Shown piece after piece: positions 1,749 through 49,688 of a DNA stretch of 64,000 nt. Made by a program: the position numbers and the translations under genes. Source of the DNA: an uncultured Clostridia bacterium (lineage in GTDB: Bacteria > UBA6262 > WVXT01); contig CAYOFG010000001.1 of NCBI GenBank assembly GCA_964403285.1, positions 22,183 through 86,182 on the forward strand, in the 5' to 3' direction. Each line of letters starts with the position of its first letter. Positions within the stretch are counted from its first letter, which is position 1. The notes under the pieces are model-generated. The model ran no database searches, was not told where the DNA came from, and saw only the letters and a program-made list of their open reading frames with translations.

Positions 1749-4160
1749 CTAAATAGAGACTCCCCGTTTTTTCACCGGCATCCTTATGATAAAGGTAGAC
1801 CCTTTTTGCGGCTTTGAGGAGACTTCAATACTACCCTTATGATTCTCAACAATTCTATATACGATAGAAAGTCCCAGACCTGTACCTCTACCAACATCCT
1901 TGGTGGTAAAAAAGGGATCAAATATTTTCCCGATATGCTCCTCAGGTATACCTTTACCATCATCTTTTATTTGCACTACTGCAAAGTCACCTTCTTGATA
2001 GCTCTTTATCGTTATAGTGCCAGATTCTTTAATAGATTTTATTGCCTCTTTAGCATTGATCATTAAATTGGTAAAGACTTGCATCAATTCATTAAAATTC
2101 CCCTCAATTGATGATACCTTCCCTTGCTGTTTGCGGAGATAAATCTTATCCTGGCGCAATTGATATTCTAAAAAGGCATAAGCCCTATCAATAACCCGAT
2201 TCAAATCCAATTCCTCAAAGTTAGCACCGCTTTTCCTTGAGTATTGGAGTAACATCTCTACAATCTCCTTACACCGCCGTGTGCCTTCTTCGATTTCCTG
2301 CAGCATTTTTCTATATGGTTTTGCCTCTATTTCCCTGAGCAGCATCTCTGCATTCAGCAAAATAGAACCTAAGGGAGTGTTGATTTCATGAGCTACCCCG
2401 CCGGCTAACACACCTACAGTGGCCATCTTCTCTGACTGAATTAACTGCGTCTCAGTAGCTTTTAATTTTTTTTGCACACCGTTATGCAAACGGGCATTTA
2501 CCAAGGCTATTGATGCATATTCAGCCAATGATTCCACTAAAGTCAAATCACCAGAAGTAAAAGCATCTACGAGAGATTGTCTGTCGATATAGATTAAGCC
2601 AATAATCTTATTTTTCTCCTCTTTTAAAGGAACACAAACTACTGAGCGGATATCCAGGGCTAAGACACTTTCTGCATTTGCAAAATGGGAGTCATTTTGG
2701 ACATCGGTAACCCAAATTGGTCTCTGCGTCTCCAGGACTTTCTCAGTAATGGTCCGGCTAAAATTTTTGAAAAAAGCGTTTTTCTTTTCATCAAATTTTT
2801 CTTTTGTCCGAATTACCTGGGAATAAGGCTTTCCTGCTTCATCCAGCAGAATAAGAAATCCACGATCAGCATTAGTCACCTTCATTATATACTCAATAAT
2901 ATTGTTTAAAACTGCATTTAAATCCAAATTACTGACTACCAGTTTCATAAATTCATCCAGTATTTCTATTTGTTGGCGTAGTGATGAAGGTGGTTTTTGA
3001 GTTATCTCTGAAGTTATGGATTTCTTCTGCCTCTCCTTCAGAACCTGGCGAGCTTCATTGGCTCGAGATAATTGGAACTGGTTATCAATGATAATAAATT
3101 TAGCCGAGGCCTCTTCTAAGGCTATGGTTGCCTGTTCAAAGTCTTTTAATTCCATATAAAACTTGCCTAACTTTAACTGCGTTATCCCTTCTTCTAAAAG
3201 ATTCCCTTGGGACTGGGCTATCTTAATACCTTGTCTAAAATACCCTTCTGCTCTTTCCAATTGCTTCTCTTTTTGAGCCACCAACCCCTGTAACCTCATT
3301 AGATGGATATGATAATAAGAATCCGGCAATTCTAATTCCGTTTCCAGTCTTTGTTGGGTTTCCTGCAAATACTCTTTGGCTTCGGTTATTTTATCCTGTT
3401 CTAAAAAGACCTCTCCTGTATTATAAAGAGCGGGAATCAATTGTTCCACTTTTTTCTCCCGTCCCAAGGAAACAGCTTTCTCAAGATACGATAATGCCTC
3501 TTCTATTCTTTTTAATTCAAAGGCTGCCTTTCCTAACAACACGTTCCCCTGGACCTGCAAGTTTATATATCCTAACTTAGTAGCCAATTCTAACAACCTA
3601 CTTGCCCATTCCTGGGCTGACTTAAAATCTCCCCGATTCAAGGCATCCCCATCCAAAACGGGCAGAATAGAGACTTCATAGGTTGACGGCTCTTTCAGCT
3701 TTTCCAGACAACTAAAAATCAGGCCTTGCACCTCTTGAACCTGGTGTGTCCTTCCACAAATACCCGAGTAGTCGAGTTTACATTTATTAATCCAGAAGAC
3801 TATATCAGTAAAATCATTTTCCTGTGCTATTTGGTTAGCCTTTTCTAAATATCGACCTTCACCTTTTCTCCCGAATCGACAAAAAGCCTGCTGGTAAAGA
3901 CAACCAGCCATTGCATAAACCCACCAGAATTCCTTATCTCGTTCCCTTTTTCTCTGTTCACAAAGCTCTATCACCTTTTTCATCTGTCCAGAACAGGTCG
4001 TCCCCAACCCATGGTCAAGTAAATCAGGAGCTTGCTTTATCAAATTTTTACAATACGCCAGAAACTTTTTATTTGATCTCCGGATGGCTTTCTTTCCCAA
4101 AAAAGCCACTATCCCTTTTAGCCCCATTCTTGCACTAACTAAATTCTTATCTTTTTTCAT
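1749..4160 (-). CDS. Sensor histidine kinase with N-terminal TPR-like repeats, GAF domain, HisKA and HATPase_c
   Basis: The TPR-like region includes [12 protein letters not shown] and [16 protein letters not shown]. The GAF region includes [19 protein letters not shown]. The HisKA H-box is [10 protein letters not shown]. The HATPase segment includes [11 protein letters not shown]...[11 protein letters not shown]. Confidence 0.8.
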
Positions 4161-4554
4161 ATCGATTCAAAAACTTTCTCAGTAAAATCACATCTTTTTT
4201 ACTTAACTCTACAAAACAGACTCCTGTGCGAAAGATGTCTTTATGCTCCTTTGAAATTGGTTGGCTATAAGCCACCTGTGCTTTTACGTTAACAAATTTG
4301 GATTTAGCAGATTTCACACTCTTATCTTTAGGAGGAAACCCAATTTGGAGATTCATAACTAAGGGGGGTTTATTGCTACCAACAAAACCGATGCCTCGCG
4401 TGCTAATATCCTTAGTTATTGTCTTTATCTTTAGTTGCTTCTTAAATGGAGGTATGGTGATATTATAAATTACTGGGAGAGACATGGCAAATCTACGCGA
4501 GGCTCTCTTTTCAACATTCTTCTGTTTGTTTTTCATAGCCCTCTCCTTTTTCAT
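4147..4554 (-). CDS. PilZ domain protein (c-di-GMP receptor)
   Basis: The RxxxR motif (ASRRFAMSL) and D.S..G motif (KDISTRGIGFV) of PilZ are present. I chose the internal start MKKERAM, which has an AAGGA/AGGAGAG RBS and avoids a 19-nt overlap with the upstream gene. Confidence 0.6.
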   Translation of the reverse strand: MKKERAMKNKQKNVEKRASRRFAMSLPVIYNITIPPFKKQLKIKTITKDISTRGIGFVGSNKPPLVMNLQIGFPPKDKSVKSAKSKFVNVKAQVAYSQPISKEHKDIFRTGVCFVELSKKDVILLRKFLNRYEKR

Positions 4555-4574
4555 TCTGTTTCCTTTCTCAAACT

Positions 4575-4952
4575 TTATAACCAATGTTTCCAATCTAATT
4601 TAGCAATCGTGTCCTTTACAAATTTTCTTATCACTTCCCTATCTTTCTTTTTTAACTCGAGAAATCCAACACCACATCTGTAAGGAGGATAATCATCCCA
4701 ATAATTATCCGAAACATATATCACCTGGCCTAAACTACTTATGGTAACATGAGGCAAAGGCAAGGTTATCTCTAGTTCTAATATTGTTCCAGCATCCAAT
4801 TTCTTCGATATCTTCATCATTATTCCACCCTCGCCAATATTTACACTAACTGCTTTTATTGGCGGGGACTCGGAATCCTTAATCTTGTATTGCACGCCAA
4901 AATCTGTTCTTACCCTAGAGAACCTTCTTCTCTCTTTTACCATTTTAACCAC
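4575..4952 (-). CDS. PilZ domain protein (c-di-GMP receptor)
   Basis: The motifs RRRFSRVR (RxxxR) and VNIGEGGIMM (D/N.S.GG) are typical of the PilZ fold. Confidence 0.6.
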   Translation of the reverse strand: MVKMVKERRRFSRVRTDFGVQYKIKDSESPPIKAVSVNIGEGGIMMKISKKLDAGTILELEITLPLPHVTISSLGQVIYVSDNYWDDYPPYRCGVGFLELKKKDREVIRKFVKDTIAKLDWKHWL

Positions 4953-6020: not shown

Positions 6021-8318
6021 CTATTCTTGCTTTCCCTCATTAAGAATCTTAATAAATATATCTACTATATGAGGATCAAATTGTTTTCCTGCACCAGCCA
6101 GAAGCTCTTTTCTTGTTTCTTCTAATGTGAGAGCTTTTCGAAAAAGCCGTTTACTTGTCATAGCTTGATATGCATCCACAACAGCAATTATTCTTGATTC
6201 CAGGGGTATTTCTTCACCTTTTAAACCTTCTAGATAACCTTTTCCATCCCAACGCTCATGATGATAATATACTATATTTGCCATATTTGTAAAATTTTCA
6301 ATTTTTTCAGCAACTTTTTTACTGAAAGTAACATGTGTTTTAATTGTATCCCACTCTTCATTCGTTAATGAACCTGGTTTCGTTAATATATCAACAGGTA
6401 AATAAATTTTGCCAACATCATAAATTAACGCAGCTGTTTCAAGTTCATCTAATTGTCTCTCAGATAAATTTAGCCTCTCTCCAATCTTTCTCGCTAGTTG
6501 TGCATTTTTCACATAGTGGAGACGAGCATACCCTACAATTTCTGTAAGTTTTGTTACTGATTCTATTATAGTTGCTAATGTATCCTTTACTCCTTGCAGC
6601 TGATAAAGTGTATGATAGAGCCCCTTCTTTTCCATTAGTTCCCTATGTGTCCCAATCTCTCTACTCTTACCCTTGTGAAGAACAACGATTTTGTCTGTAT
6701 CAGTAACAGTAGAAAGATGGTGAGCAATAATAATGGTAGTTCTTTTCCTTTTTATTCTTTTCAGAGTATTCCTAATCTCAGTTGTTGTTTCTGCATCAAC
6801 ATTTGCGGTAGCTTCATCAAGAATTATAATTTGGGGATTGAACACACAAGCTCGAGCAAAAGATATTAACTGTTTTTGACCAGTAGATAACTTCGCACCT
6901 GCTTCATACACATTTTCTTTGTAGCCATTTGGAAGCTGGCTTATAAATTTATCAGCCCCGACATAAGTAGCTGCTCTATGGATTTGCTCGCTATCTATTT
7001 TTAAATTTCCCAACCTTATATTATCTTCAATGTTTCCTGAAAACAAAAAAGGCTCCTGTGGAATTATTCCTATTAACGAACGAAGTTGGCTTTTTTGAAT
7101 ATTTCGAATATTAATGCCATCAATTAAAATTTCTCCTTTATTTATTTCGTAAAATCCAGCCAAGAGGTTAATTATCGTTGTTTTACCTGCTCCAGTATAA
7201 CCTACAATACCGATCTGTTCGCCTTTTCGAATTTCAAGATTAAAATTTTCTAACACAAAATTATCATTATTATAAGCAAACCATACATTCTTGAATTCTA
7301 TTTTTCCCTTAAATTCTGGCAAATCAACCTTACCTTGAGGTCTTTCAACCTCAACTTTAGTATCTAACAATCCAAAAATTCTTTCCAAGGAGGCTGTGGC
7401 AGTCTGAAGAACTTTGTTTCCATGTATCAGCTTTTCTATTATACCAAAAAATAAACTCATCGACCCCACGAAGACAAGCAATGCTCCTAAACTTAAAGTT
7501 CCTCTCAGCACTTCTCTTCCTCCATACCATAGGATAAAGCACATAACCATTGCCTTAAAGACCATTGCTATTGGAGAAGTAAGGTTAAGATAAAAAAGAG
7601 AGTGCATACTTGTGTCTGTGTACTTTTTATTTAAATAATTTAATTTATCACTTTGCTTTTTTTCTTGATGAAAAATCTTTATCAAAGAAATACCAGTTAT
7701 ATTTTCTTGAAGAAAAGAACTGATTTGACCGAACCAAGACCTCTTTTCCCTTGTTATTTCTCTATTTTTCTTATTTATCAATAAGACACAAAATCCGAAT
7801 ACAAAAAGTAATATACACGTCATCAAGGTAAGTTGATGATTTTGATAAAATAAGTACCCTGTAATTCCAAAGAAAAAAAGTATATTACCAAAGATATTAA
7901 TGACCGACTCATTTACTACCTGTTTTAAAAGCTGAACATCATTTGTAGCTATGGCCATTAGTTTTCCTATAGGATTCTTATCAAAAAATGACAGGTCCAT
8001 CCTTTGAAGATGAGAAAAGATTTCCATCCTGAGATTAAACATCACATTTTGTCCAATATAACTAGCGAGATAACCCTCCAAGAATCTAAAAATGAGTAAT
8101 AAACAAAGTACAAAAAAATAAATTAAGACTACACCTTTAATCAATCCTAAGAAGTTGTTCTTTAGAACATAAACATCTATAGCTGTTCGTAATAGGTGTA
8201 ATTGAAAAATTCCTAAAAATGCTATACCTGCCTGAAGAAATATAGACACGAGAATAAGAAAACGATAAGGGACCAAATATTTAATAAAATATCTTATTAT
8301 AGACCTTTTATTAGTCAT
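6021..8318 (-). CDS. ABC exporter half-transporter (TMD plus NBD) fused to a C-terminal degenerate HD-GYP domain
   Basis: There are six predicted TM helices. Walker A is GYTGAGKTT. The ABC signature is noncanonical, LSTGQKQL. Walker B is IIILDEATANVD. The C-terminal 190 aa align to HD-GYP but are degenerate: LHYVKNAQLA replaces the GHSxRV region, ALIYDVGK replaces LHDIGK (His to Tyr), HHERWDGKGYL replaces GYP, DAYQAMTSKRLF deviates, and GKQFDP is retained. Confidence 0.75.
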   Translation of the reverse strand: MTNKRSIIRYFIKYLVPYRFLILVSIFLQAGIAFLGIFQLHLLRTAIDVYVLKNNFLGLIKGVVLIYFFVLCLLLIFRFLEGYLASYIGQNVMFNLRMEIFSHLQRMDLSFFDKNPIGKLMAIATNDVQLLKQVVNESVINIFGNILFFFGITGYLFYQNHQLTLMTCILLFVFGFCVLLINKKNREITREKRSWFGQISSFLQENITGISLIKIFHQEKKQSDKLNYLNKKYTDTSMHSLFYLNLTSPIAMVFKAMVMCFILWYGGREVLRGTLSLGALLVFVGSMSLFFGIIEKLIHGNKVLQTATASLERIFGLLDTKVEVERPQGKVDLPEFKGKIEFKNVWFAYNNDNFVLENFNLEIRKGEQIGIVGYTGAGKTTIINLLAGFYEINKGEILIDGINIRNIQKSQLRSLIGIIPQEPFLFSGNIEDNIRLGNLKIDSEQIHRAATYVGADKFISQLPNGYKENVYEAGAKLSTGQKQLISFARACVFNPQIIILDEATANVDAETTTEIRNTLKRIKRKRTTIIIAHHLSTVTDTDKIVVLHKGKSREIGTHRELMEKKGLYHTLYQLQGVKDTLATIIESVTKLTEIVGYARLHYVKNAQLARKIGERLNLSERQLDELETAALIYDVGKIYLPVDILTKPGSLTNEEWDTIKTHVTFSKKVAEKIENFTNMANIVYYHHERWDGKGYLEGLKGEEIPLESRIIAVVDAYQAMTSKRLFRKALTLEETRKELLAGAGKQFDPHIVDIFIKILNEGKQE

Positions 8319-32553: not shown

Positions 32554-35500
32554 TTAATCTTTAATAGACCGCAATAATTCTACTACTTCCCTCTTTTTTA
32601 TTTCTGCACCAATCTCCCCAAATATTTTTTCGGCCTCACTCAGACTATCCTTAGCACTGCTCCATTGTGTCAAATCCATATTAATTTTTGCCATTTGCTC
32701 ATAGAACCATCCTTTAAGTAAAGGATTGTCTGTTTCTTCAGATAATTCTAACACTTCTTTCAAAATATTCTGTGCTTTTTCAAATTCCTTCTTTCTTCTC
32801 ATTATTTCTGAACTTAAAAGATATATCCTTGCCTGAGAAACAACAGGAGTATCCTCGAGTTTTTGGTTTAAGAACTCTTCGGCTCTGCTAAGAATCAACT
32901 GCGCCTGCTCAATATCATCTAACTCAATGTACATTTCAGCCAAAAATCCCATTGCCTCAGTAGTAGAGATGAGATTTGATTCAGTGGCTCGTTCAACAGC
33001 TTGTTTCATCTGGCTAATGCCTTCTTCTCTCTTGCCCTGCACAAACTTAAGATAAGCCTTAAACATCTCTCCCTGCTGAATTATATAACTTGAACCGGTT
33101 CGCTGTCCTAAAGTGTACAGTTTCTCCGCAGACTCCATAGCCTTGTCATAACTATGTAATAATATTTCTATTCTTGTCCGATAACAGTAATACCACATTT
33201 CTGTAGATGCTGGCCTACCTAACTTTCTACTCATCTCTTGTGCTATATCGCTTTCTTTTTGGAATTCTTTGCCCATTCCTCTCCAACTTAACCATTCCCA
33301 ATCTAAACAGCGTAACCACCAGACTAAATCTAGGAAATTTTCTTTCTCATTATAACGAAGGCCGCGTGCAGCAAAATCACGGTCAAAATTTTTTCCTAAA
33401 ACCACATTAGGAAGGTTCAAAAAATAAAAGTAAGTCCCGTAGACATATTTGTAAAACCAATCGGTTAAACCTACGTAACGCTCAGCGATATCCATATTTT
33501 CAAAAGCATGTTTACCTCGTTTAATTACATCTTTTGTTCGCCCAAGGTAAACTAAAGTGGGAAAATACCCCGCAACTACAGCTGAATAACCTAAACCATT
33601 CATATCGGGAAGATAATCGTCAACTCGGTCAATTAACTCCAACGACCTTTTATAACTACCCAGGAAAAATTCAGCCAAGGAACCCCATCCATGAACTCGG
33701 ACCATAAATAAAATAATTGTGCCAAAATCTTTATCAATTTTTGCTTTTGGTGGTTGCTTAGTTAACTTTTCCTTAATCTTAAGGCCGGTCCTTTTCGGCA
33801 ACATATCCACTATTTTAAAAACAATGCGCATCAGTTTTACTACTCGCTTGACATTTATAAGGCGATTCAACTCTTGAAACTGGCGCTCGCAGACCTCTGC
33901 ACAATACCCAGGGTCAGTATATATAGCAGTATCCTCCACTCTATCTCGAATGTGGAACATCACTGTTTTCTTATTGGGATACTCGATTGTCTCAACTATT
34001 TCTAGCGCCTCTGCCCATGATTTAGTTGCTCTGAAGAAGTCTCTAATCTTCCACCCTACGTCGCCAGCTTTAATTAAGTACTCTGCAGCCTTGGTTTTGT
34101 TTAAACCACGACTAAAATGGTAGGCCAACTCATTAATAACAGATTCTTTATCCTCGGCGAAACGCGCTTCTATGAAAGTAGCTGCTTTTTCATGCATTTC
34201 TTTCCTGGATGCCTCCTCTAATTGAGCGTAGAGGGTTTCTCTGACACGGTCGTGAGTAAAGGCATATTGTTTTTCTTCGATTTTCATAAATTGGCGTTCG
34301 ATTAACTCGTCTAAAACACCAAAGAGTTGTTCATCTCCTAAACCACTTAATGTTTTGAGAAGAGATAAATCGAGATTTCTGGCTACCACTGCCGCCACTC
34401 TTGCAATCTTCAACACTTCAGGTCTAAGGAGTTTTAAACGGCGAAGGATAGTGGCTTCTATTGAGGTAGGTAACTCTATTGCGCTTATATCTGCAGGTAA
34501 AATCCAACATCCGCGCTCCAATTTTAGCTGTTCTTCCTCAATTAATGCCCTCATTACTTCACTGACAAAAAAGGGATTACCTCCAGTAGCAGTATATATA
34601 TGCTCAGTGAAATCTTCAGTTAATTCAATACGGCCTAACATCTTTGCAATCAAAATATCGACATTATCCGAATCTAAAGGCAATAACTTCATTTCATTGG
34701 TGAGATTTTCTTCAACGGTTTGAAAAATACGGCTTGTAGGTTCAACTTCATCGTCGCGGAAGGAAGATAAAATCATAATAGGATATTCTCGTAGTTCTCG
34801 AATACAAACGTTAAGCAAATCTATGGAAGGCGTATCTGCCCAATGTAAATCTTCAATATAAATAACTAACGGTTGCACTTTTGAAACTTCTTTTAACCAT
34901 CCAGCAACCGATTCAAATAAACGCGCCTTCTCCGCATATTCTTCTAATTGTGGAGCAGGCTCGTACCCTTTATTTCTTAGTTCAGGTATAACTTTAACCA
35001 GTACTGAACCATATTTATCTATCACATCTTTTGAGGTTAATGGTAAAAGAGGTTTGAGTGCTTTAGCTACAGGCTGATACGCAGTCATACCCTGTGCAAA
35101 ACAATTGCCTTGCACAAAAGGAACCTCGTCTAATTGGACATATAGCTGGAACTCTTGAATTAAGCGGGATTTTCCAGTTCCTGCTGGAGCAGCAATAAAA
35201 ACACTCTTGCCTTTACCTTCCTTTGTAAGCCTAAAAAGTTCTTTTAATTCCCGCATCTCTCCTTCACGGCCTATCAGTTCACTACAATTGAGATAACTTT
35301 TCCTCTGTTCTAAAGTCTCTATAGATACTTCCTCAGCACTGAGTTTGACTAAATCGTTAATTAATTCCGCTGTTGTCTGGTAACGATTATCTGGGTCCTT
35401 AGCAATGAGTCTTAATATGACTTCTTCCAGTTCTTCAGGGATATTTTTTCTAATGTTACAAGGAGGCAGAGGAGGTTCTTGAATATGTTTTTTTATAATC

Positions 35501-36258
35501 TCTAAAATAGTCTTTCCCAAAAATGGAAGCTTTCCAGTGGTTAATTCATAAGCCATTATACCTAAGGAATATAAATCAGAACGGGCATCAATTATACCAC
35601 CTTTGGTAACTTCTGGAGGCATGTAAAGAGGGGTACCGGCGATTTCACCATTGCTGGGCAATCCCATCTGGTCCATCAAACCAAAATCCATCATTTTCAC
35701 ATTGCCTTCAGGAGTAATCCGGATATTATCTGGTTTTATATCTCTATGAACCAAAAGTCTTGAATGGATGAAATTTAACACCTGGGCAGTTTGGATAAGG
35801 ATTCGGTAAACTTCAGGAATGTTCAATTGTCTTTCTTTTAAGATATCGCGCAATTCTCTTCCGCACACGATCTCCATTGTAATATAATCGTCGCCATTTT
35901 CTAATACACCAAAATTGTATACATGAACGGTACTAGGGTGCTTTAATTTAACCATAGTACGAAATTCCTGTTTGAAGTGGAGTTCCACTTCAGTTGTAGA
36001 AGTGGCTGTAGCGGTTATCCTTACTCTTTTTGTCTGGGCAGCTGTTGTAGCGAAAATATCATCTCCCACCAGTGGCTCCTTGACCTCAGTCCCTGTCACA
36101 GTCGAGCTCGTATCCGTACCTGCTACTTCCCGGAAAAATTGCTTCAAAGCAACCTCTCGGTGTTCTAATGTATCATATACTTTCCATATTATACCCATTC
36201 CTCCTGCGCCAAGTTTTTCTAAAACTTTATACCGATTTGCTAATAAAGTTTCTTTCAT
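32554..36258 (-). CDS. Multidomain signalling protein: Ser/Thr protein kinase, AAA/STAND-type P-loop NTPase, TPR repeats
   Basis: Hanks kinase motifs LGAGGMG, VALKQF, HRDIKPDNI, DFGL, PPE and DLYSLG are present. A P-loop FIAAPAGTGKSRL and Walker B VIYIEDLHWAD follow. A long C-terminal helical-repeat region includes GEMFKAYLKF and AQLILSRAEEFL. A roughly 45 aa Thr/Ser/Ala-rich insertion sits between the beta3 Lys and alphaC. Confidence 0.75.
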   Translation of the reverse strand: MKETLLANRYKVLEKLGAGGMGIIWKVYDTLEHREVALKQFFREVAGTDTSSTVTGTEVKEPLVGDDIFATTAAQTKRVRITATATSTTEVELHFKQEFRTMVKLKHPSTVHVYNFGVLENGDDYITMEIVCGRELRDILKERQLNIPEVYRILIQTAQVLNFIHSRLLVHRDIKPDNIRITPEGNVKMMDFGLMDQMGLPSNGEIAGTPLYMPPEVTKGGIIDARSDLYSLGIMAYELTTGKLPFLGKTILEIIKKHIQEPPLPPCNIRKNIPEELEEVILRLIAKDPDNRYQTTAELINDLVKLSAEEVSIETLEQRKSYLNCSELIGREGEMRELKELFRLTKEGKGKSVFIAAPAGTGKSRLIQEFQLYVQLDEVPFVQGNCFAQGMTAYQPVAKALKPLLPLTSKDVIDKYGSVLVKVIPELRNKGYEPAPQLEEYAEKARLFESVAGWLKEVSKVQPLVIYIEDLHWADTPSIDLLNVCIRELREYPIMILSSFRDDEVEPTSRIFQTVEENLTNEMKLLPLDSDNVDILIAKMLGRIELTEDFTEHIYTATGGNPFFVSEVMRALIEEEQLKLERGCWILPADISAIELPTSIEATILRRLKLLRPEVLKIARVAAVVARNLDLSLLKTLSGLGDEQLFGVLDELIERQFMKIEEKQYAFTHDRVRETLYAQLEEASRKEMHEKAATFIEARFAEDKESVINELAYHFSRGLNKTKAAEYLIKAGDVGWKIRDFFRATKSWAEALEIVETIEYPNKKTVMFHIRDRVEDTAIYTDPGYCAEVCERQFQELNRLINVKRVVKLMRIVFKIVDMLPKRTGLKIKEKLTKQPPKAKIDKDFGTIILFMVRVHGWGSLAEFFLGSYKRSLELIDRVDDYLPDMNGLGYSAVVAGYFPTLVYLGRTKDVIKRGKHAFENMDIAERYVGLTDWFYKYVYGTYFYFLNLPNVVLGKNFDRDFAARGLRYNEKENFLDLVWWLRCLDWEWLSWRGMGKEFQKESDIAQEMSRKLGRPASTEMWYYCYRTRIEILLHSYDKAMESAEKLYTLGQRTGSSYIIQQGEMFKAYLKFVQGKREEGISQMKQAVERATESNLISTTEAMGFLAEMYIELDDIEQAQLILSRAEEFLNQKLEDTPVVSQARIYLLSSEIMRRKKEFEKAQNILKEVLELSEETDNPLLKGWFYEQMAKINMDLTQWSSAKDSLSEAEKIFGEIGAEIKKREVVELLRSIKD

Positions 36259-36514
36259 TTTTTGCTCTTCCTGTTTTTAAGTCTAATTTAAAGGCTTGAA
36301 AAAATTTCTCCTCAGCCCCTTTCTCAGACTTTATGCCAGAAACATCAACTCTCATAGCCATAACAATTTTTATAAAAGTATTAAGTATGCAGCTCCGGGA
36401 TGGTTTCTTCCCCCCAGAAAACCTCATCTCCCGGGCTATTCCATCAATGAACTTAATTTGCTTCTTATTCACTCCAATATTAGCTATAATTAAAATTTTA
36501 TTCCGACTGTTCAT
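36227..36514 (-). CDS. Small protein (95 aa), paralogue of 36529..36798
   Basis: It shares a core F..I..M..GG.K.P.S.I with its neighbour (FIDGIAREMRFSGGKKPSRSCILNTF versus FYNLSISMKINGGYKLPKSYIIRSL). There is weak resemblance to AbrB/MazE swapped-hairpin or RHH DNA-binding cores. It overlaps the kinase start by 32 nt. Confidence 0.35.
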   Translation of the reverse strand: MNSRNKILIIANIGVNKKQIKFIDGIAREMRFSGGKKPSRSCILNTFIKIVMAMRVDVSGIKSEKGAEEKFFQAFKLDLKTGRAKNERNFISKSV

Positions 36515-36528
36515 TTGCTAAATTACCG

Positions 36529-36798
36529 TTACTTTTCCCTCACTCTTCTGAGCTCATTAAGAGATTGAAGAATCCTCTTTTCTAAATCAATCTTGGTTTT
36601 AACGTTCTTCAAGTTTATCTTTAGTCTCATAAAGGCATTAACTAGACTTCGAATAATGTATGATTTAGGTAACTTATAGCCGCCATTTATTTTCATTGAA
36701 ATGCTCAGATTATAAAACCAGTCATTCGTCTTTTTATCCAGAAAAATGGGGATACGGAACAGGTTTTTTTCAACATCAGATCTAAACCGCTTATTCAT
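36529..36798 (-). CDS. Small protein (89 aa), paralogue of 36227..36514; possible AbrB/MazE- or RHH-like DNA binder
   Basis: MKINGGYKLPKSYIIRSLVNAFMRL resembles the G-R/Y-x-x-I/L-P-K-x-I-R-x-L swapped-hairpin motif. It lies 20 nt downstream of the radical SAM gene stop. Confidence 0.35.
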   Translation of the reverse strand: MNKRFRSDVEKNLFRIPIFLDKKTNDWFYNLSISMKINGGYKLPKSYIIRSLVNAFMRLKINLKNVKTKIDLEKRILQSLNELRRVREK

Positions 36799-36818
36799 TT
36801 GTGTTTACCTCGCCATCT

Positions 36819-37829
36819 TTACTCAGCTCCGAAGACATTCTCATCATAGTCAACAGGAAATTCCTTTTTCCCCTCAAATAATTTAAGCAATTTGCTTCTC
36901 ATCTTGGGATCATTCATCGGACAATCACATCTATTTATATTTTCTCGTTCCATTTTGAAATAAGAACTACTCCACATTCTCTCAATTATGGTCTTTAAAT
37001 CTTCTTTTCGTATATTACCGAACCTAATAGGAACATAACAACAAGGTTGCACATCTCCATAAGCAGTAATAGCAACAACCCATCGCGTAACACTTGCGCA
37101 TACAAAAGGAACTGTCCCGTCGCACCACTCTTCCCAGAAAACAAAATTAGGCTCCAAAAGGGCCCGGAATTCTTCCATCTCATCTTTGGAAAGTCGAATC
37201 TCTTGATTGGTCCATCTTCCAACCATCATAGGAGTAAGAAGTCTGATTTTAAACACCCCTAAATCTTTTCCCAATTGAATGATTTTTTTTGTATCGCCAC
37301 TTTTAAGACTTTGCTTGGTAACCACGGTTGAAATTCCTACAGGGATTCCCAGCTCTACACAATTTTTAATCGCTTGAATAGCTTTATCCCAGGAACCTTC
37401 CATTCCTCGAAATTGGTCGTGGACTTTAGGATTACTACTATCTATACTCACCAGGAAAAAAGTTATCCCAGCCTCTTTTACTGCTTTAGCAAAACTTTTA
37501 TTAGCCAACTTAATTCCATTTGTATCAGCACGGGTAAAGAGGCCTTTTTGGGTTGAATACCGAAGAAGTTCTACAAAATCTCTATGTATTGTTGGCTCTC
37601 CTCCAAAAAAGTAAGCCACACCCAACCCACAGTCTTTTAATCGATCGAGAATTTTGCTCTTAACCTCTTCTGTTGTCAATAACTTTTCATTTTTCTTCTC
37701 AAACAAACCAACTCCACAGTGTTTACAACGACATTGACATGCGTAGGTTAAACTGATAAAAGCCCCTTTAACTTGGGCAAATTTTTTTATTCCTTGATAA
37801 CCCTCTAAATCTTCAAGTTTCACATTCAT
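36819..37829 (-). CDS. Radical SAM enzyme with SPASM/twitch C-terminal Cys cluster
   Basis: CQCRCKHC (Cx3Cx2C) lies near the N-terminus. The GGEPT glycine-rich SAM motif is present. The C-terminal cysteines are CDGTVPFVCAS...QPCCYVPIRFGNI...RCDCP. Confidence 0.7.
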   Translation of the reverse strand: MNVKLEDLEGYQGIKKFAQVKGAFISLTYACQCRCKHCGVGLFEKKNEKLLTTEEVKSKILDRLKDCGLGVAYFFGGEPTIHRDFVELLRYSTQKGLFTRADTNGIKLANKSFAKAVKEAGITFFLVSIDSSNPKVHDQFRGMEGSWDKAIQAIKNCVELGIPVGISTVVTKQSLKSGDTKKIIQLGKDLGVFKIRLLTPMMVGRWTNQEIRLSKDEMEEFRALLEPNFVFWEEWCDGTVPFVCASVTRWVVAITAYGDVQPCCYVPIRFGNIRKEDLKTIIERMWSSSYFKMERENINRCDCPMNDPKMRSKLLKLFEGKKEFPVDYDENVFGAE

Positions 37830-38107
37830 AAATATCTTTCTTGTAAATAATAAAATAAAAAACCGAACTGCTCTCTTGCAAAAGGCAGTTCGGCTAATAA
37901 GTTAATTAAAGACTTCTCTGCTATTTTTATAATTGGTTTCGGTAGCCCGGCCGTCATTCTCACTTTTTCCTTGCTGACCCGTAACTTTGCCGCGTCTCCT
38001 AAAGTCCACCAAACCGACTACGGAATCGCGCCCCGGGGCATCCCAAATAATGATTTACCGGGGGCCCCTACCTCTCGGTAGGTTTGCCTTTTCGTTCCAA
38101 CTTTTCT
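37830..38107 (-). promoter_or_regulatory. Structured ~280 nt 5' leader (candidate riboswitch or attenuator) of the radical SAM gene
   Basis: The leader lies between a consensus promoter and the terminator. Its 5' end is AAAAGGCAAACC followed by a GNRA-capped hairpin CUACCGAGAGGUAGG. A 7-bp GC helix GCCCCGG...CCGGGGC follows. A later element is GACGCGGCAAAG. Confidence 0.4.
37851..37893 (-). terminator. Intrinsic (rho-independent) terminator immediately upstream of the radical SAM start codon; a probable expression platform or attenuator
   Basis: The minus-strand RNA reads GCCGAACUGCCUUUUGCAAGAGAGCAGUUCGG followed by UUUUUUUAUUUUAUU, a 9-bp GC-rich stem with a U-tract. It ends about 20 nt before the ATG at 37829. 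Confidence 0.6.
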
Positions 38108-38113
38108 GTTTTA

Positions 38114-38142
38114 AGTATATCACAAAAGTTACATTTTGTCAA
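38114..38142 (-). promoter_or_regulatory. Sigma70-type promoter (TTGACA, 17 nt spacer, TATACT) driving the leader and radical SAM gene
   Basis: The minus strand reads cattTTGACAaaatgtaacttttgtgaTATACTtaaaacA. The -35 and -10 are perfect or near-perfect with a 17-nt spacer. The predicted TSS coincides with the start of the AAAAGGCAAACC motif. Confidence 0.55.
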
Positions 38143-38247
38143 ATGCCTTTTTATGCTTTTCAATATTTTTGCTTAGGAGTATTAAACAAAAAGGAAATAA
38201 TACCCGGTTCGCACTTGTTTCATCATTTAGTTAACAAAACCTTTTCG

Positions 38248-38357
38248 AATTCTGGGGACACAATACTTAATTAATAACCATACGGGCTATTCGTGCCATA
38301 GCATAATCAACATACCAGAGTCGTATCTGGATAATTAAGTATTGTGTCCCCAGAATT
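38248..38357. repeat. MITE-like element: 26-bp perfect terminal inverted repeats flanking 56 bp, with dispersed solo copies elsewhere
   Basis: aattctggggacacaatacttaatta (~38248-38274) is the reverse complement of taattaagtattgtgtccccagaatt (~38331-38357). The core ggggacacaatactt recurs at ~45403-45417. aattaagtattgtgtcccc recurs at ~48587-48605. Confidence 0.5.
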
Positions 38358-38377: not shown

Positions 38378-39781
38378 TTACGCCCTTTGCCCCTTTGGTG
38401 CCCCTTCAGTGCCCCTTTCGCCCCTTTGGTGCCCCTTTAAAATATAGTAGGTGCCTTTTCCAGTTATGCCAATCCGTTCAAAAATCTTTTTGTCTTCAAG
38501 TTCTCTCAAATCATCTGTAGCCTGCCTTTTCTTTACTTCGCAGACCTCCTGATACTCCTTGTTTGTGATGCGTTCTTTCTCCTTTACATACATCACGGCT
38601 TTGATTTGTCTATTATTCAAACCTAATTCTCTCAAATTTTTCTCGGTTAAGATATCTTTCCTGAAAGTAACCGCAAACATTCCCATATCTTCGGAGAATT
38701 GGGGCTCGGGTAAGCCACTATCAATGCATTCTCTAATAATCTTTAATGTTCCGCCTCCCCATTTTTCTATATAACCAGTGTAAAAGAAGGCTTCGGCAAT
38801 GAGCCGATTGTGCGGCCGGGAGGGATGTTCGGTCTTTAATTGCTCCAAGGATAGGTCGGGAGGAAGCTTACCAGGATTCCAGACTAAAATATGGTCATCA
38901 TAAATTCGGATTTGAGTGTTCGCGCTATCCAGATAGTCCCTGTGACAAACGGCATTTATTACAGTTTCTCTTAATGCTTCTAAAGGATACTCCCAAACGA
39001 CCTTTCTTTGCGGCTCACCAGTAAATTCAAATTTCGTCTGGAGCCTATCTCTAAAATATAACATTGCCTCTTCAATCTGTTCAAAAAGAGTTCCTCGGAT
39101 TTCCTTGTCATCGATAATTATGGTTTCCGATTTAAATCTTCCCATCTTTAAAATTGCCTGAAGATAAAATCTATGAGGATTCTTACCAAAGAGTAGGATT
39201 GCTGCTTTTGTTGGCTTCCCTTTTTGTATCAGTTCCAATTTTTCCAATGTAGTTAAAGGCTTCTCATTTTCAGGAATGGGCCTGCGGCCTGTCTTGTTAC
39301 AAAGTCCTACAAATTTCTTAACCTTCTCTAAACCAATGTCTTCAAGAGTAGTCTGAGGCTCAATCAGACAGTCCCAGGTAGTCCCTGCAGTCTCAAGAAC
39401 AAGTGTAGTTATATCTTCCCAGCCCATTTGACGATTGCTTGAACTTACTCTTTTAAAGTATCTACCCTTAAAACTAACCGGTTTAATACGATTTTCAAGG
39501 ATATGGAAGAGAATGATTTTCTTTTCCTTTACAGAAAACTTCTCAGGCTTTATGGAAATCTTTGGTTCTGTAGTTTGGGAGACTTGGTTTACCCATTCAT
39601 CCAGAGTCTTTTTGCCCAGCCGGACACCTTTTATTTTGCCTTTATCATCTATACCAATAAAAATTCTGCCTCCCTTTGTATTGGCGAAGGCAACAGCAGT
39701 CTCGATGAATTCCTTATCAAAACTTTCTTTAAACTCTATTGTTTCGGATTCCCCTTTAGCTAAAATTTCCTTAATATTCAT
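38378..39781 (-). CDS. Protein with a Schlafen-like AlbA_2 DNA-binding domain, an HATPase_c_4 ATPase domain and a C-terminal winged helix (often annotated as transcriptional regulator or RecG-like ATP-binding protein)
   Basis: The N-terminus ESETIEFKESFDKEFIETAVAFANTKGGRIFIGIDDKGKIKGV is the Schlafen-like AlbA_2 signature. The mid region LRETVINAVCHRDY...IRIYDDHILVWNPG matches HATPase_c_4. A C-terminal wHTH is present. The 3' end carries short tandem repeats. Confidence 0.55.
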   Translation of the reverse strand: MNIKEILAKGESETIEFKESFDKEFIETAVAFANTKGGRIFIGIDDKGKIKGVRLGKKTLDEWVNQVSQTTEPKISIKPEKFSVKEKKIILFHILENRIKPVSFKGRYFKRVSSSNRQMGWEDITTLVLETAGTTWDCLIEPQTTLEDIGLEKVKKFVGLCNKTGRRPIPENEKPLTTLEKLELIQKGKPTKAAILLFGKNPHRFYLQAILKMGRFKSETIIIDDKEIRGTLFEQIEEAMLYFRDRLQTKFEFTGEPQRKVVWEYPLEALRETVINAVCHRDYLDSANTQIRIYDDHILVWNPGKLPPDLSLEQLKTEHPSRPHNRLIAEAFFYTGYIEKWGGGTLKIIRECIDSGLPEPQFSEDMGMFAVTFRKDILTEKNLRELGLNNRQIKAVMYVKEKERITNKEYQEVCEVKKRQATDDLRELEDKKIFERIGITGKGTYYILKGHQRGERGTEGAPKGQRA

Positions 39782-39884: not shown

Positions 39885-39963
39885 TGGTAGCGCCAACGGG
39901 ATTTGAACCCGTGATCTCTGCCTTGAGAGGGCAGCGTCCTAAACCAGACTAGACGATGGCGCC
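39885..39963 (-). tRNA. tRNA-Glu (anticodon CUC), CCA encoded
   Basis: The minus strand reads GGCGCCATCGTCTAGTCTGGTTTAGGACGCTGCCCTCTCAAGGCAGAGATCACGGGTTCAAATCCCGTTGGCGCTACCA. The 7-bp acceptor has a G1-U72 pair. The D-arm GUCU/AGGAC is Glu-like. The anticodon stem CUGCC/GGCAG has loop CUCUCAA, giving anticodon CUC. The T-loop is TTCAAAT. Confidence 0.75.
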
Positions 39964-48554: not shown

Positions 48555-49688
48555 TCAGGAAAATTGACTCTGACCCCTTTTTAAACAATTAAGTATTGTG
48601 TCCCCATAATTCTTTGCGAATGCATCTACTCCTTCTCTTTGCAGGGTCTCACAGACCTCATCTAAATCCACCCCGGCTTTTTTCATCCGGGAAAGAACTT
48701 CTTTAACTCCACCCAAGTTCTCTTCCAGGGATAATTTTGGCTTTCCGTGGTCTCTAAAGGCATCGAGCGTCACCTGAGGAACGGTATTTATTGTATCCGG
48801 GCCAATCAATTCTGCCACGTATTTCACATCACTATAGGCAGGGTTCTTAGTGGAGGTGCTTGCCCAGAGCGGTCTTTGAACTCTGGCGCCTCTTTTTTCC
48901 AGGTCTTTGAACTTTTGTTGAGAGAAAATCTCCTTAAACTTTTGATAAACCTTCTTGGAATTGGCTACTGCTGCTTTTCCCAAAAGCCCCTGTAAATCTC
49001 TCTTCCTTTCAGAGTCTTTCTCCGATTCTATCAGCGAAGAAATCTCCTTATCCACCAGTGTGTCTATCCTGCTCACAAATAGACTGGCAACCGAAGCCAC
49101 TCTCTTTAAATCTCCTTCCTCCCGGGAAAACCCTTCCAGTCCCTTGATGTATGCTCGGGCAACGTTTTCGTAATGGGACAAGGAGAAGATGAGAGTAGCA
49201 TTTATATTGATGCCTTTCGATATCAGCCGCTCTATTGCCACAGCCCCTTCTTTTGTTGCCGGGACTTTTATCATAATGTTTTCTCTTCCTATTCTCATAA
49301 ACAATTTTTGAGCCTCATTTATAGTCTGTTCAATATCGTACGCATATTTAGGAGGAACTTCAATGCTCACATATCCGTCTTTTCTTTCTGTTTCCTTATA
49401 TATTTTATAAAGAATATCTGCCGCCAGAGTCACATCCTTTATTGTCAGGCTCTCATAAACCTCTTCGGCAGTCTTATTTTTCCGAGTCAACTCTTCAATT
49501 TCAGAGTCGTACTCCTTACTCTGAGTAATTGCTTTTTCAAATATCGTGGGATTCGATGTAACTCCACAAACGCCATCCTCTTCTACCATCTTTTCCAGCT
49601 TCCCCGAGGTAAGAATTGACCTCTCAATGTTGTCATACCAGATACTCTGGCCAAAATTCTTAATCTGATAAACGGGATTCTTTCCCAT
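48555..49688 (-). CDS. tal: Transaldolase
   Basis: SIWYDNIERSILTSGKLEKMVEEDGVCGVTSNPTIFEKAI contains the transaldolase (V/T)TSNPTIF signature. The Schiff-base Lys region MIKVPAT is present. The last six codons (GDTILN) are encoded by a copy of the dispersed repeat. Confidence 0.7.
   Translation of the reverse strand: MGKNPVYQIKNFGQSIWYDNIERSILTSGKLEKMVEEDGVCGVTSNPTIFEKAITQSKEYDSEIEELTRKNKTAEEVYESLTIKDVTLAADILYKIYKETERKDGYVSIEVPPKYAYDIEQTINEAQKLFMRIGRENIMIKVPATKEGAVAIERLISKGININATLIFSLSHYENVARAYIKGLEGFSREEGDLKRVASVASLFVSRIDTLVDKEISSLIESEKDSERKRDLQGLLGKAAVANSKKVYQKFKEIFSQQKFKDLEKRGARVQRPLWASTSTKNPAYSDVKYVAELIGPDTINTVPQVTLDAFRDHGKPKLSLEENLGGVKEVLSRMKKAGVDLDEVCETLQREGVDAFAKNYGDTILNCLKRGQSQFS

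Follow-up and report, generated by a model that had tools for sequence, protein, structure and literature searches.

The 64-kb stretch of DNA analysed here (the window; contig CAYOFG010000001.1, positions 22,183 to 86,182) carries on its minus strand an operon, at 32554..37829, that comprises a radical S-adenosylmethionine (rSAM)/SPASM gene, genes for two small proteins, A and B, and a Ser/Thr kinase-AAA_16-TPR gene. The element under study is the leader that precedes this operon. The original prediction, made from the letters of the DNA, placed a near-perfect sigma70 promoter (TTGACA-17-TATACT) ahead of a structured leader of ~280 nt, in which a 5' element and a GNRA-capped hairpin are followed by a GC helix and a later conserved element, and proposed a riboswitch, possibly resembling the GEMM/c-di-GMP-I aptamers that bind cyclic di-GMP (c-di-GMP). 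The promoter and all four structural elements were found on the minus strand (Table 1). Transcription likely starts near 38107, giving a predicted leader of ~278 nt before the ATG at 37829.

Table 1 Features of the leader cassette and of the operon behind it, in the order of transcription (P, paired helix; J, junction between two helices)
Feature	Coordinates	Strand	Basis and remarks
Conserved block of ~100 nt 5' of the -35 box, part of the cassette	38143..38240	-	Sliding identity, alignment
Sigma-70-type promoter	38114..38142	-	TTGACA (38142-38137), 17 nt, TATACT (38119-38114); 11/12 consensus; extended -10 TG ((TG)nTATACT)
Putative aptamer domain, 172 nt	37931..38102	-	P1 5' strand AGUUGG to P1 3' strand CCAAUU; GEMM-I-like three-helix junction plus insertion
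P1 5' strand: AGUUGG (38102-97), AA, CG (38094-93)	38093..38102	-	Pairs with CG (37941-40) and CCAAUU (37936-31)
J1/2 and P2a 5' strand, AAAAGGCAAACC	38081..38092	-	Alignment with AAAGGCAAACC, upper case in the RF03167 and RF01051 consensus
P2b hairpin CCUACC-GAGA-GGUAGG, 6-bp stem, GNRA tetraloop	38067..38082	-	Close to the RF03167 consensus CCcgcCGAAAGgcgGG
70-nt two-hairpin insertion	37997..38066	-	Absent from GEMM-I models; splits the P2 internal loop on its 3' side
Insertion hairpin 1 (GC helix), GCCCC...GGGGC	38065-38030	-	G+C-rich stem invariant, tip variable
Insertion hairpin 2, CGU-AGUC ... GACU-UU-ACG/AGG	about 38022-37998	-	Invariant GUUUGG loop
3' side of the P2 internal loop, P2a 3' strand and J2/3, GACGCGGCAA	37987..37996	-	Invariant; two possible registers
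P3: AGUU-A-CGG-GUC, 20-nt A-rich loop, GAC-GG-CCG-GGCU	37944..37986	-	Aligns to the RF03167 P3 consensus AgCcAcGGguC...GacAGCCggGcU
J3/1 and P1 3' strand, ACCGAAACCAAUU	37931..37943	-	cmscan alignment, pair table
A/U-rich linker with a small hairpin, AAGU...ACUU	37895..37930	-	21% G+C; kept in aptamer-less leaders
Intrinsic terminator: 15-bp hairpin CCGAACUGC.../...GCAGUUCGG and U6	37857..37894	-	RNAfold -20.0 kcal/mol, isolated hairpin
rSAM/SPASM gene	36819-37829	-	Pfam, NCBIfam; no defined subfamily
Small protein A gene	36529-36798	-	No family match
Small protein B gene	36227-36514	-	No family match
Ser/Thr kinase-AAA_16-TPR gene	32554-36258	-	Pfam, NCBIfam; ~1200 aa; overlaps the end of gene B by 32 nt

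Homologous leaders were collected from genomic and metagenomic sequences (comparison loci and contigs are labelled with L-numbers). Look-ups of relatives of the downstream proteins yielded leaders in L017 and L021/L022, along with the aptamer-less leaders of L018-L020. A metagenome scan with the pattern AAAGGCAAACC...CGCGGCAAAG gave, among the 120 matches listed, seven true copies (L034, L035, L043, L048, L086, L112 and L115), the majority being chance or coding matches, and a look-up via small protein A added one more copy, L155/L156. A scan of viral sequences for the leader pattern returned chance matches only. Including the window, the set holds at least 11 distinct copies, which are 81-98% identical. 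The named relatives of the rSAM/SPASM protein are metagenome-assembled genomes of Candidatus Omnitrophota and, as far as found among the matches listed, the leader variant is limited to one narrow lineage of this phylum.

The conserved block has sharp limits. Between about -100 and +290, counted from the -35 box, the sliding identity of the window with other copies is 0.8-1.0; the block ends at the terminator, and identity falls to background beyond these limits where the neighbouring genes differ. Leaders are 90-98% identical where the adjoining coding DNA is 69-74% identical: the window and L086 share 97.6% of the leader and 69.5% of the small-protein A gene, and the window and L021 share 90% of the leader and 74% of the rSAM gene. 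The block is non-coding because one-nucleotide insertions and deletions among the copies break open reading frames (ORFs) on both strands. Among the ORFs rejected were a 7-codon AUG ORF in the insertion (MPRGAIP), which has no AUG in L048 and is frameshifted in L112, and an antisense ORF of 95 aa (37987-38274), which is broken by indels in L112 and L034. The promoter is identical or nearly so in the 11 aptamer-bearing loci and in L018-L020. Upstream of it, the window compared with L086 and L115 shows a sliding identity of 0.82-0.92 from -100 to 0; farther out, identity is at background in L115 (0.34-0.40) and still 0.72-0.74 to -200 in L086. The block at 38143-38240 may be an UP element or an operator.

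The cassette always lies directly upstream of, and co-oriented with, one operon family, in which three different genes can come first: rSAM/SPASM in the window, L017, L021, L034 and L035; small protein A in L043, L048, L086, L115 and L155; and in L112 an acetoacetate-decarboxylase-like gene that opens a longer B12-rSAM/hydrolase/rSAM operon. The expectation that the leader would be conserved upstream of homologous rSAM genes holds in part: rSAM relatives at 84% (L017) and 72% (L021/L022) protein identity retain the full leader, which is missing at 71% and below. In L018-L020, where the rSAM protein is 79% identical, the same promoter, linker hairpin and terminator are present (L018 2357-2500) and ~180 nt, exactly the aptamer, are missing. 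Since this natural variant lacks precisely the aptamer, the latter is a discrete module. The leader is thus borne out as a conserved, modular, non-coding element made up of promoter, structured domain and intrinsic terminator, and the comparison points to a real cis-regulatory RNA.

Leader and gene relationships do not run in parallel. Among the matches listed, the window leader is closest to that of L086 (97.6%) and the window A gene to that of L034 (93.6%; leader 87%), and in L035, L043, L048 and L086 the A genes are 97.5-98% and the leaders 93-96% identical. This apparent discordance suggests exchange of the cassette or paralogous copies.

At its curated thresholds, Rfam recognizes two tRNAs in the window and nothing else. 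In a permissive cmscan search, minus-strand positions 37937-38097 of the leader matched RF03167 (c-di-GMP-I-GGC, clan CL00126) along its entire length, model positions 1-80, with 26.4 bits (E 5e-4 on 621 nt; E 0.052 on the entire window against all 4227 families); the other non-tRNA matches in the window at E <= 1 were two weaker, sub-threshold ones elsewhere (E 0.69 and 0.99). A sensitive scan covered 10 of the at least 11 distinct copies, namely the window and nine homologues. RF03167 was the best match in all nine homologous leaders, again over the full model, with 25.1-34.4 bits and a best E of 2e-4 in 52 kb, and no other Rfam family was both full-length and reproduced in the 10 sequences. 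The RF03167 alignment leaves 79 nt of the window leader unaligned inside P2 (79-81 nt across the sequences scanned), and this ~80-nt insertion, together with a mis-modelled P2b hairpin, lowers the score. Overlapping lower-scoring matches of the same clan were suppressed in the scan; RF01051, the canonical c-di-GMP-I family, if among them, scores below RF03167, i.e. below 26-34 bits. The curated gathering scores are 59 bits for RF03167 and 35 bits for RF01051, and because the leader falls short of both we assign it to neither family. The suggested likeness to c-di-GMP-I therefore stands with qualification: similarity to Rfam families is confined to the GEMM-I clan and sub-threshold, with the GGC model rather than the canonical one scoring best. 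We consider it very probable that the leader is a riboswitch of the GEMM clan. To judge from these alignments it is best described as an insertion-bearing new variant inside the GEMM-I clan, nearest to the GGC-type architecture with a short P3.

The conserved elements of the clan can be followed through the proposed aptamer. The junction elements GGCAAACC ... GAC-GC ... ACC (ACCGAA at the 3' end) occur in order and are invariant or pair-compatible in the 11 copies. All eight P1 pairs are kept in every copy, with a G-U/A-U exchange at one position, and in L035, L048 and L112 J1/2 has five A residues, the exact consensus spacing. In J1/2 and P2a, AAAGGCAAACC is unchanged in all 11 copies. Equally constant are G38088 and C37942, which we take to be the equivalents of G20 and C92 in the numbering of the Vibrio cholerae Vc2 structure; in Vc2, these two nucleotides read the two guanines of the ligand. 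P2b is capped by a GNRA loop (GAGA or GAAA) in all 11 copies; position 4 of its stem is A-U in three, G-U in seven and G-C in one, position 5 is C-G or U-G, and three related copies have one C.A mismatch. The ten P3 pairs are likewise kept throughout, with U-G replaced by U-A in two copies and by C-G in one. As in RF03167, P3 is short, has an A bulge and a 2-nt bulge, and contains no tetraloop receptor, which probably explains why the GGC model outscores RF01051. A receptor for the GNRA loop might conceivably lie within the insertion.

The middle region had been recognized as too long for a canonical GEMM RNA and ascribed to a variant, and the excess resides in the 70-nt insertion. An invariant segment, UUCCGUAG, separates its two hairpins, and hairpin 2 shows G-C/G-U and C-G/U-G changes and two breaks among the copies. 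The segment GACGCGGCAAAG, where the insertion meets the core, can be read in two registers. Register b, that of the Rfam GGC alignment (GAC-GC/GGCAA/AG), makes position 47 G37991 and gives a 5-nt junction. Register a (GACGCG-GC/AA/AG) makes position 47 A37988 and gives the canonical A47-A48 junction; here the preceding CGCG closes insertion hairpin 2 with an upstream CGCG, through C-G in 10 copies and U-G in one. Register a is more stable in 10 of the 11 copies, by 0.5-5.3 kcal/mol, and is also chosen by the canonical model on L083, a c-di-GMP-I RNA discussed below. Because the segment is invariant in all copies, comparison does not decide between the two. We also observed that the GUUUGG loop of insertion hairpin 2 (38014-38009) is complementary to CAAAC (38086-38082) and AAACC (37939-37935), and that UUCC in the insertion (38027-38024) is complementary to GGAA in the P3 loop (37970-37967). 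These may be tertiary or alternative pairings; every partner is invariant. L144, considered as a second insertion-bearing relative, was set aside: its downstream half forms no P3, and it is more simply a sub-threshold canonical GEMM-I RNA.

Over the 11 copies, the 26 core pairs are all standard except for the one C.A. Aligned with MAFFT, the copies show 96.8% pairing in this structure, compared with 26-47% for slid partners. The covariation analysis recommended with the original prediction was run on 10-11 copies and met with too little variation (92% identity) to confirm the fold. Covariation is too sparse to prove the GEMM-I fold, which we assign on homology to the curated family and on compatible substitutions. 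The aptamer has 53% G+C, against 39% for the window, and with a z-score of only -1.9 for the entire leader, folding energy by itself is unconvincing. Thermodynamic folding did not reproduce P3 in the minimum-free-energy (MFE) structure.

At the downstream end, the terminator hairpin (37894-37863) is followed by U6 (37862-37857) and then by A-U4 (to 37852). The strong terminator that had been proposed is thus present, with U6 in place of U7 and a distance of 27 nt, instead of ~20, between the U6 and the ATG. Its stem shows pair-preserving exchanges in the 11 copies (G-C in eight, G-U in two and A-U in one at one position; C-G in 10 and U-G in one at another). A simple terminator scan of the window did not list this hairpin. 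The best antiterminator candidate pairs AAAAGGCA (38092-38085, J1/2 including the G20 equivalent) with UGCCUUUU (37888-37881; partner UGCYUUUU), which belongs to the upper part of the terminator 5' strand. It has 8 bp in nine of the 11 copies, and in transcripts stopped before the 3' strand of the terminator, the MFE structure pairs AAAAGGCA with the terminator 5' strand in four of six copies. No convincing mutually exclusive antiterminator helix was found in the leader. Three further candidates, AAAAAUAGCAG of the linker with CUGCCUUUU, ACCGAA with UUCGGU, and the P1 5' strand with UUAACUU of the linker, were rejected as weak or not conserved in L017 and L112.

The explanation that we favor, with a probability of roughly two in three, is a transcription-attenuating riboswitch of the GEMM-I clan whose predicted ligand is c-di-GMP or a very close relative. 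The first ~175 nt of the transcript would fold as a GEMM-I three-helix junction, with P1 (AGUUGG-AA-CG / CG-AAA-CCAAUU), P2 (GC-AAA-CCUACC-GAGA-GGUAGG ... GC) and the short P3, and the two extra hairpins (70 nt) would turn P2 into a multi-helix junction while leaving the pocket equivalents G38088 and C37942 intact. A guanine-containing cyclic dinucleotide, most likely c-di-GMP, would bind and lock J1/2, P2a and P1, and the ligand state would then decide whether transcription stops at the hairpin-U6 terminator 50 nt downstream, ahead of the operon genes listed in Table 1. c-di-GMP or a related guanine dinucleotide is the most economical ligand because the G20 and C92 equivalents are intact. For the sign of the switch we have a weak preference for OFF: in this logic, unheld AAAAGGCA would pair with UGCCUUUU and delay nucleation of the terminator, and ligand, by locking J1/2, would allow the terminator to form.

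Several observations weigh against this explanation, and they concern the class assignment, the fold and the switch in turn. The scores of the 10 sequences (25-34 bits) lie below both cut-offs; P3 contains no 11-nt tetraloop receptor of the CCUAAG/UAUGG type, either on direct reading or in comparison with the RF01051 consensus; and the register of the P2/P3 junction, hence base 47 (G or A), may be read either way. In the alignment of the copies, which are 92% identical, no pair departs from its commonest form in both partners at once, and shuffled alignments do equally well. RNAalifold favors a different 3' half, itself without covariation, and nearest-neighbor MFEs are 5-16 kcal/mol better than the GEMM-constrained fold. 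The candidate antiterminator has only 8 bp (5-7 bp in L017 and L021), against a terminator of -20 kcal/mol, and is without independent covariation. The aptamer-less leaders keep the terminator, so that termination may be leaky or otherwise controlled. In a genome scan and in 11 encoding contigs, the leader was not found at rSAM homologues of 71% identity or less or at small protein A homologues of 59% or less, and an Rfam scan of such distant loci without the leader gave no GEMM match.

In 10 other loci, too, the leader is followed by this operon module, whether or not it opens with the rSAM gene. Small proteins A and B are common to the cassette operons, as is the kinase further down in most loci that reach far enough; the Ser/Thr kinase-AAA_16-TPR gene is absent in L021/L022, L043 and L048. 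The conserved module was also seen in L026, L035, L086, L115, L154, L155 and L157, often alongside B12-rSAM, alpha/beta-hydrolase and methyltransferase genes. The two small proteins look paralogous, with 83-99 aa for A and 84-95 aa for B. Protein A has no sequence match in Pfam, NCBIfam, PADLOC or PDB, and its AlphaFold model (pLDDT 80, three helices) gave no significant fold match, with MetJ appearing only at E 8, so that a ribbon-helix-helix assignment is unsupported. The kinase domain of the STAND-like kinase matches PD-T4-6-type models in PADLOC. With rSAM/SPASM, B12-rSAM and methyltransferase genes beside those for the small proteins and this kinase, the regulated set is atypical of a c-di-GMP regulon.

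The c-di-GMP machinery to which the leader had been tentatively linked is indeed in the window, as a response regulator with an HD_5 domain of the HD-GYP type (386-1537) and two PilZ proteins (4147-4952). This regulator is 36 kb from the leader and adjoins a GAF/TPR histidine kinase gene and the two PilZ genes, and its orthologue lies directly upstream of the leader in L017 (162-1211) and L034 (1522-2571). In the window, the gene upstream of the cassette (38378-39781, minus strand) encodes Schlafen AlbA_2 and HATPase_c_4 domains with weak PADLOC similarity to proteins associated with prokaryotic Argonautes, and it lies just downstream of a tRNA gene (39888-39963, minus strand). Between this gene and the cassette is a perfect 26-nt inverted repeat (38248-38273 / 38332-38357) with arms 58 nt apart. 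A third arm lies 10 kb away (48585-48612), and an inverted pair occurs at an unrelated position in another Omnitrophota contig, L115 (6344-6361 / 6595-6612). The repeat looks like a mobile repeat of the MITE (miniature inverted-repeat transposable element) or REP (repetitive extragenic palindromic) kind. In a non-overlapping map, all ORFs longer than 120 aa in the window are on the minus strand.

The atypical regulon keeps alive a different view of the ligand, which we regard as possible and clearly the less probable one: a GEMM-derived architecture with altered specificity, for pGpG, for another cyclic di- or oligonucleotide, or for a metabolite tied to the rSAM pathway. The pocket would have been remodeled by the expanded junction (GGCAA instead of AA/GA), the lost canonical GAC-GC context and the extra domain. 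An altered ligand has previously been proposed for orphan GGC variants, and to our knowledge no ligand has been established for RF03167. The preference of all 10 sequences for the GGC model over RF01051 fits this view, as do the G at position 47 and the J2/3 of 5 nt instead of 2 that follow from register b. Each of these points has a counterpart, however. The preference for RF03167 may merely reflect the short, receptor-less P3, register a restores the canonical AA junction at a slightly better energy in 10 of 11 copies, the G20 and C92 equivalents are invariant, and c-di-GMP machinery is present and sometimes adjoins the leader. A more specific form of the idea, which we hold to be somewhat more doubtful still, is that the 70-nt domain, together with the expanded P2/P3 junction, forms a pocket for some other nucleotide signal, perhaps one not yet described; the GUUUGG loop would then serve as an internal on/off element by pairing with the AAA of GGCAAACC.

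It is unlikely that the leader is a ligand-independent structured RNA, or a small RNA of ~250 nt working in trans or through a bound protein, such as small proteins A/B or an antiterminator, with a vestigial likeness to GEMM. Such an RNA would accord with the retention of promoter, linker hairpin and terminator in the aptamer-less versions, with the failure to find a mutually exclusive antiterminator of convincing strength in the leader, with conservation reaching ~100 nt 5' of the promoter, and with the discordance between cassette and gene phylogenies. Yet the nucleotides of the GEMM-I pocket and junction are invariant while the tip of the inserted hairpin and the P3 loop vary, the cassette is tied in position and orientation to the same operon family, and no RNA- or DNA-binding homology was detected in the small proteins. 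That a recently spread mobile promoter cassette resembles GEMM by chance, the Rfam match being noise, is hardly credible: all copies are close (81-98% identical), the match is below the gathering score and MITE-like repeats adjoin the cassette, but a full-length match at E 2e-4 against all families in 52 kb is reproduced in 10 sequences, seven features agree in order (P1, AAAGGCAAACC, the GNRA hairpin, GACGC, P3 with its bulges, ACCGAA and the return strand of P1), and the stem substitutions are pair-compatible.

A GEMM-I-clan riboswitch at this locus would extend the clan to the uncultured phylum Omnitrophota. It would also indicate that an entire two-hairpin domain can be accommodated on the 3' side of the P2 internal loop, both in this leader and, independently, in the c-di-GMP-I RNA of L083. 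RNAs like the present leader escape the curated Rfam thresholds, so that in annotation pipelines the operon would seem to lack regulation. Should c-di-GMP be the ligand, this second messenger would be tied to an uncharacterized module of rSAM/SPASM protein, small proteins and STAND kinase; if it is another compound, the operon would provide the first informative gene context, in Omnitrophota, for the orphan GGC-type GEMM variants. The aptamer-less leaders offer a natural control for leader function.

Among known systems, the leader is closest to c-di-GMP-I-GGC (RF03167), which was reportedly described as a variant set by Weinberg et al. in 2017. Besides the full-length match, the two share AAAGGCAAACC, a 6-bp P2b capped by GAAA/GNRA like CCcgcCGAAAGgcgGG, GACGCG, a short P3 (AgCcAcGGguC...GacAGCCggGcU) with equal bulges and an A-rich loop, and CCGAA at the 3' end. 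They differ in score (25-34 bits against 59), in the 70-nt two-hairpin insertion that the leader has between P2b and GAC, and in three extra nucleotides in or near J2/3 (GACGCG-GCA-AAG against GACGCG-AAG) or, alternatively, a canonical AA junction in which position 47 is not G.

With canonical c-di-GMP-I (RF01051; Vc2), the leader shares the three-helix junction, the G20 and C92 equivalents, the GNRA loop on P2, the internal-loop motif GGCAAACC...GAC-GC, and a transcription terminator as the expression platform. Cd1 of Clostridioides difficile, a canonical c-di-GMP-I riboswitch, is a terminator-type OFF switch. In contrast to the RF01051 consensus, P3 of the leader has neither the CUAA...UAUG receptor nor the distal helix; its score is below 35 bits and below its own GGC score, and its regulated genes are atypical. 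A canonical member with a comparable insertion is nevertheless at hand in L083 (414-547, plus strand), a bona fide c-di-GMP-I RNA (RF01051, 46.7 bits) with a two-hairpin insertion of ~45 nt between GGGAC and GCAAAG; downstream of this RNA is a gene for a 265-aa protein with an N-terminal hydrophobic segment. The insertion in the leader is larger and sits at a slightly different place, before rather than after GAC if register b holds. As L083 tolerates a large insertion in P2, the pocket of the leader may be canonical.

GEMM-Ib variants, the c-AMP-GMP riboswitches, change position 20 from G to A. Those of Geobacter (Kellenberger et al. 2015 and Nelson et al. 2015, cited in PMC7266159) provide a precedent for small changes in the GEMM-I pocket re-targeting the aptamer to another cyclic dinucleotide. 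The leader described here differs from GEMM-Ib in that it keeps G20.

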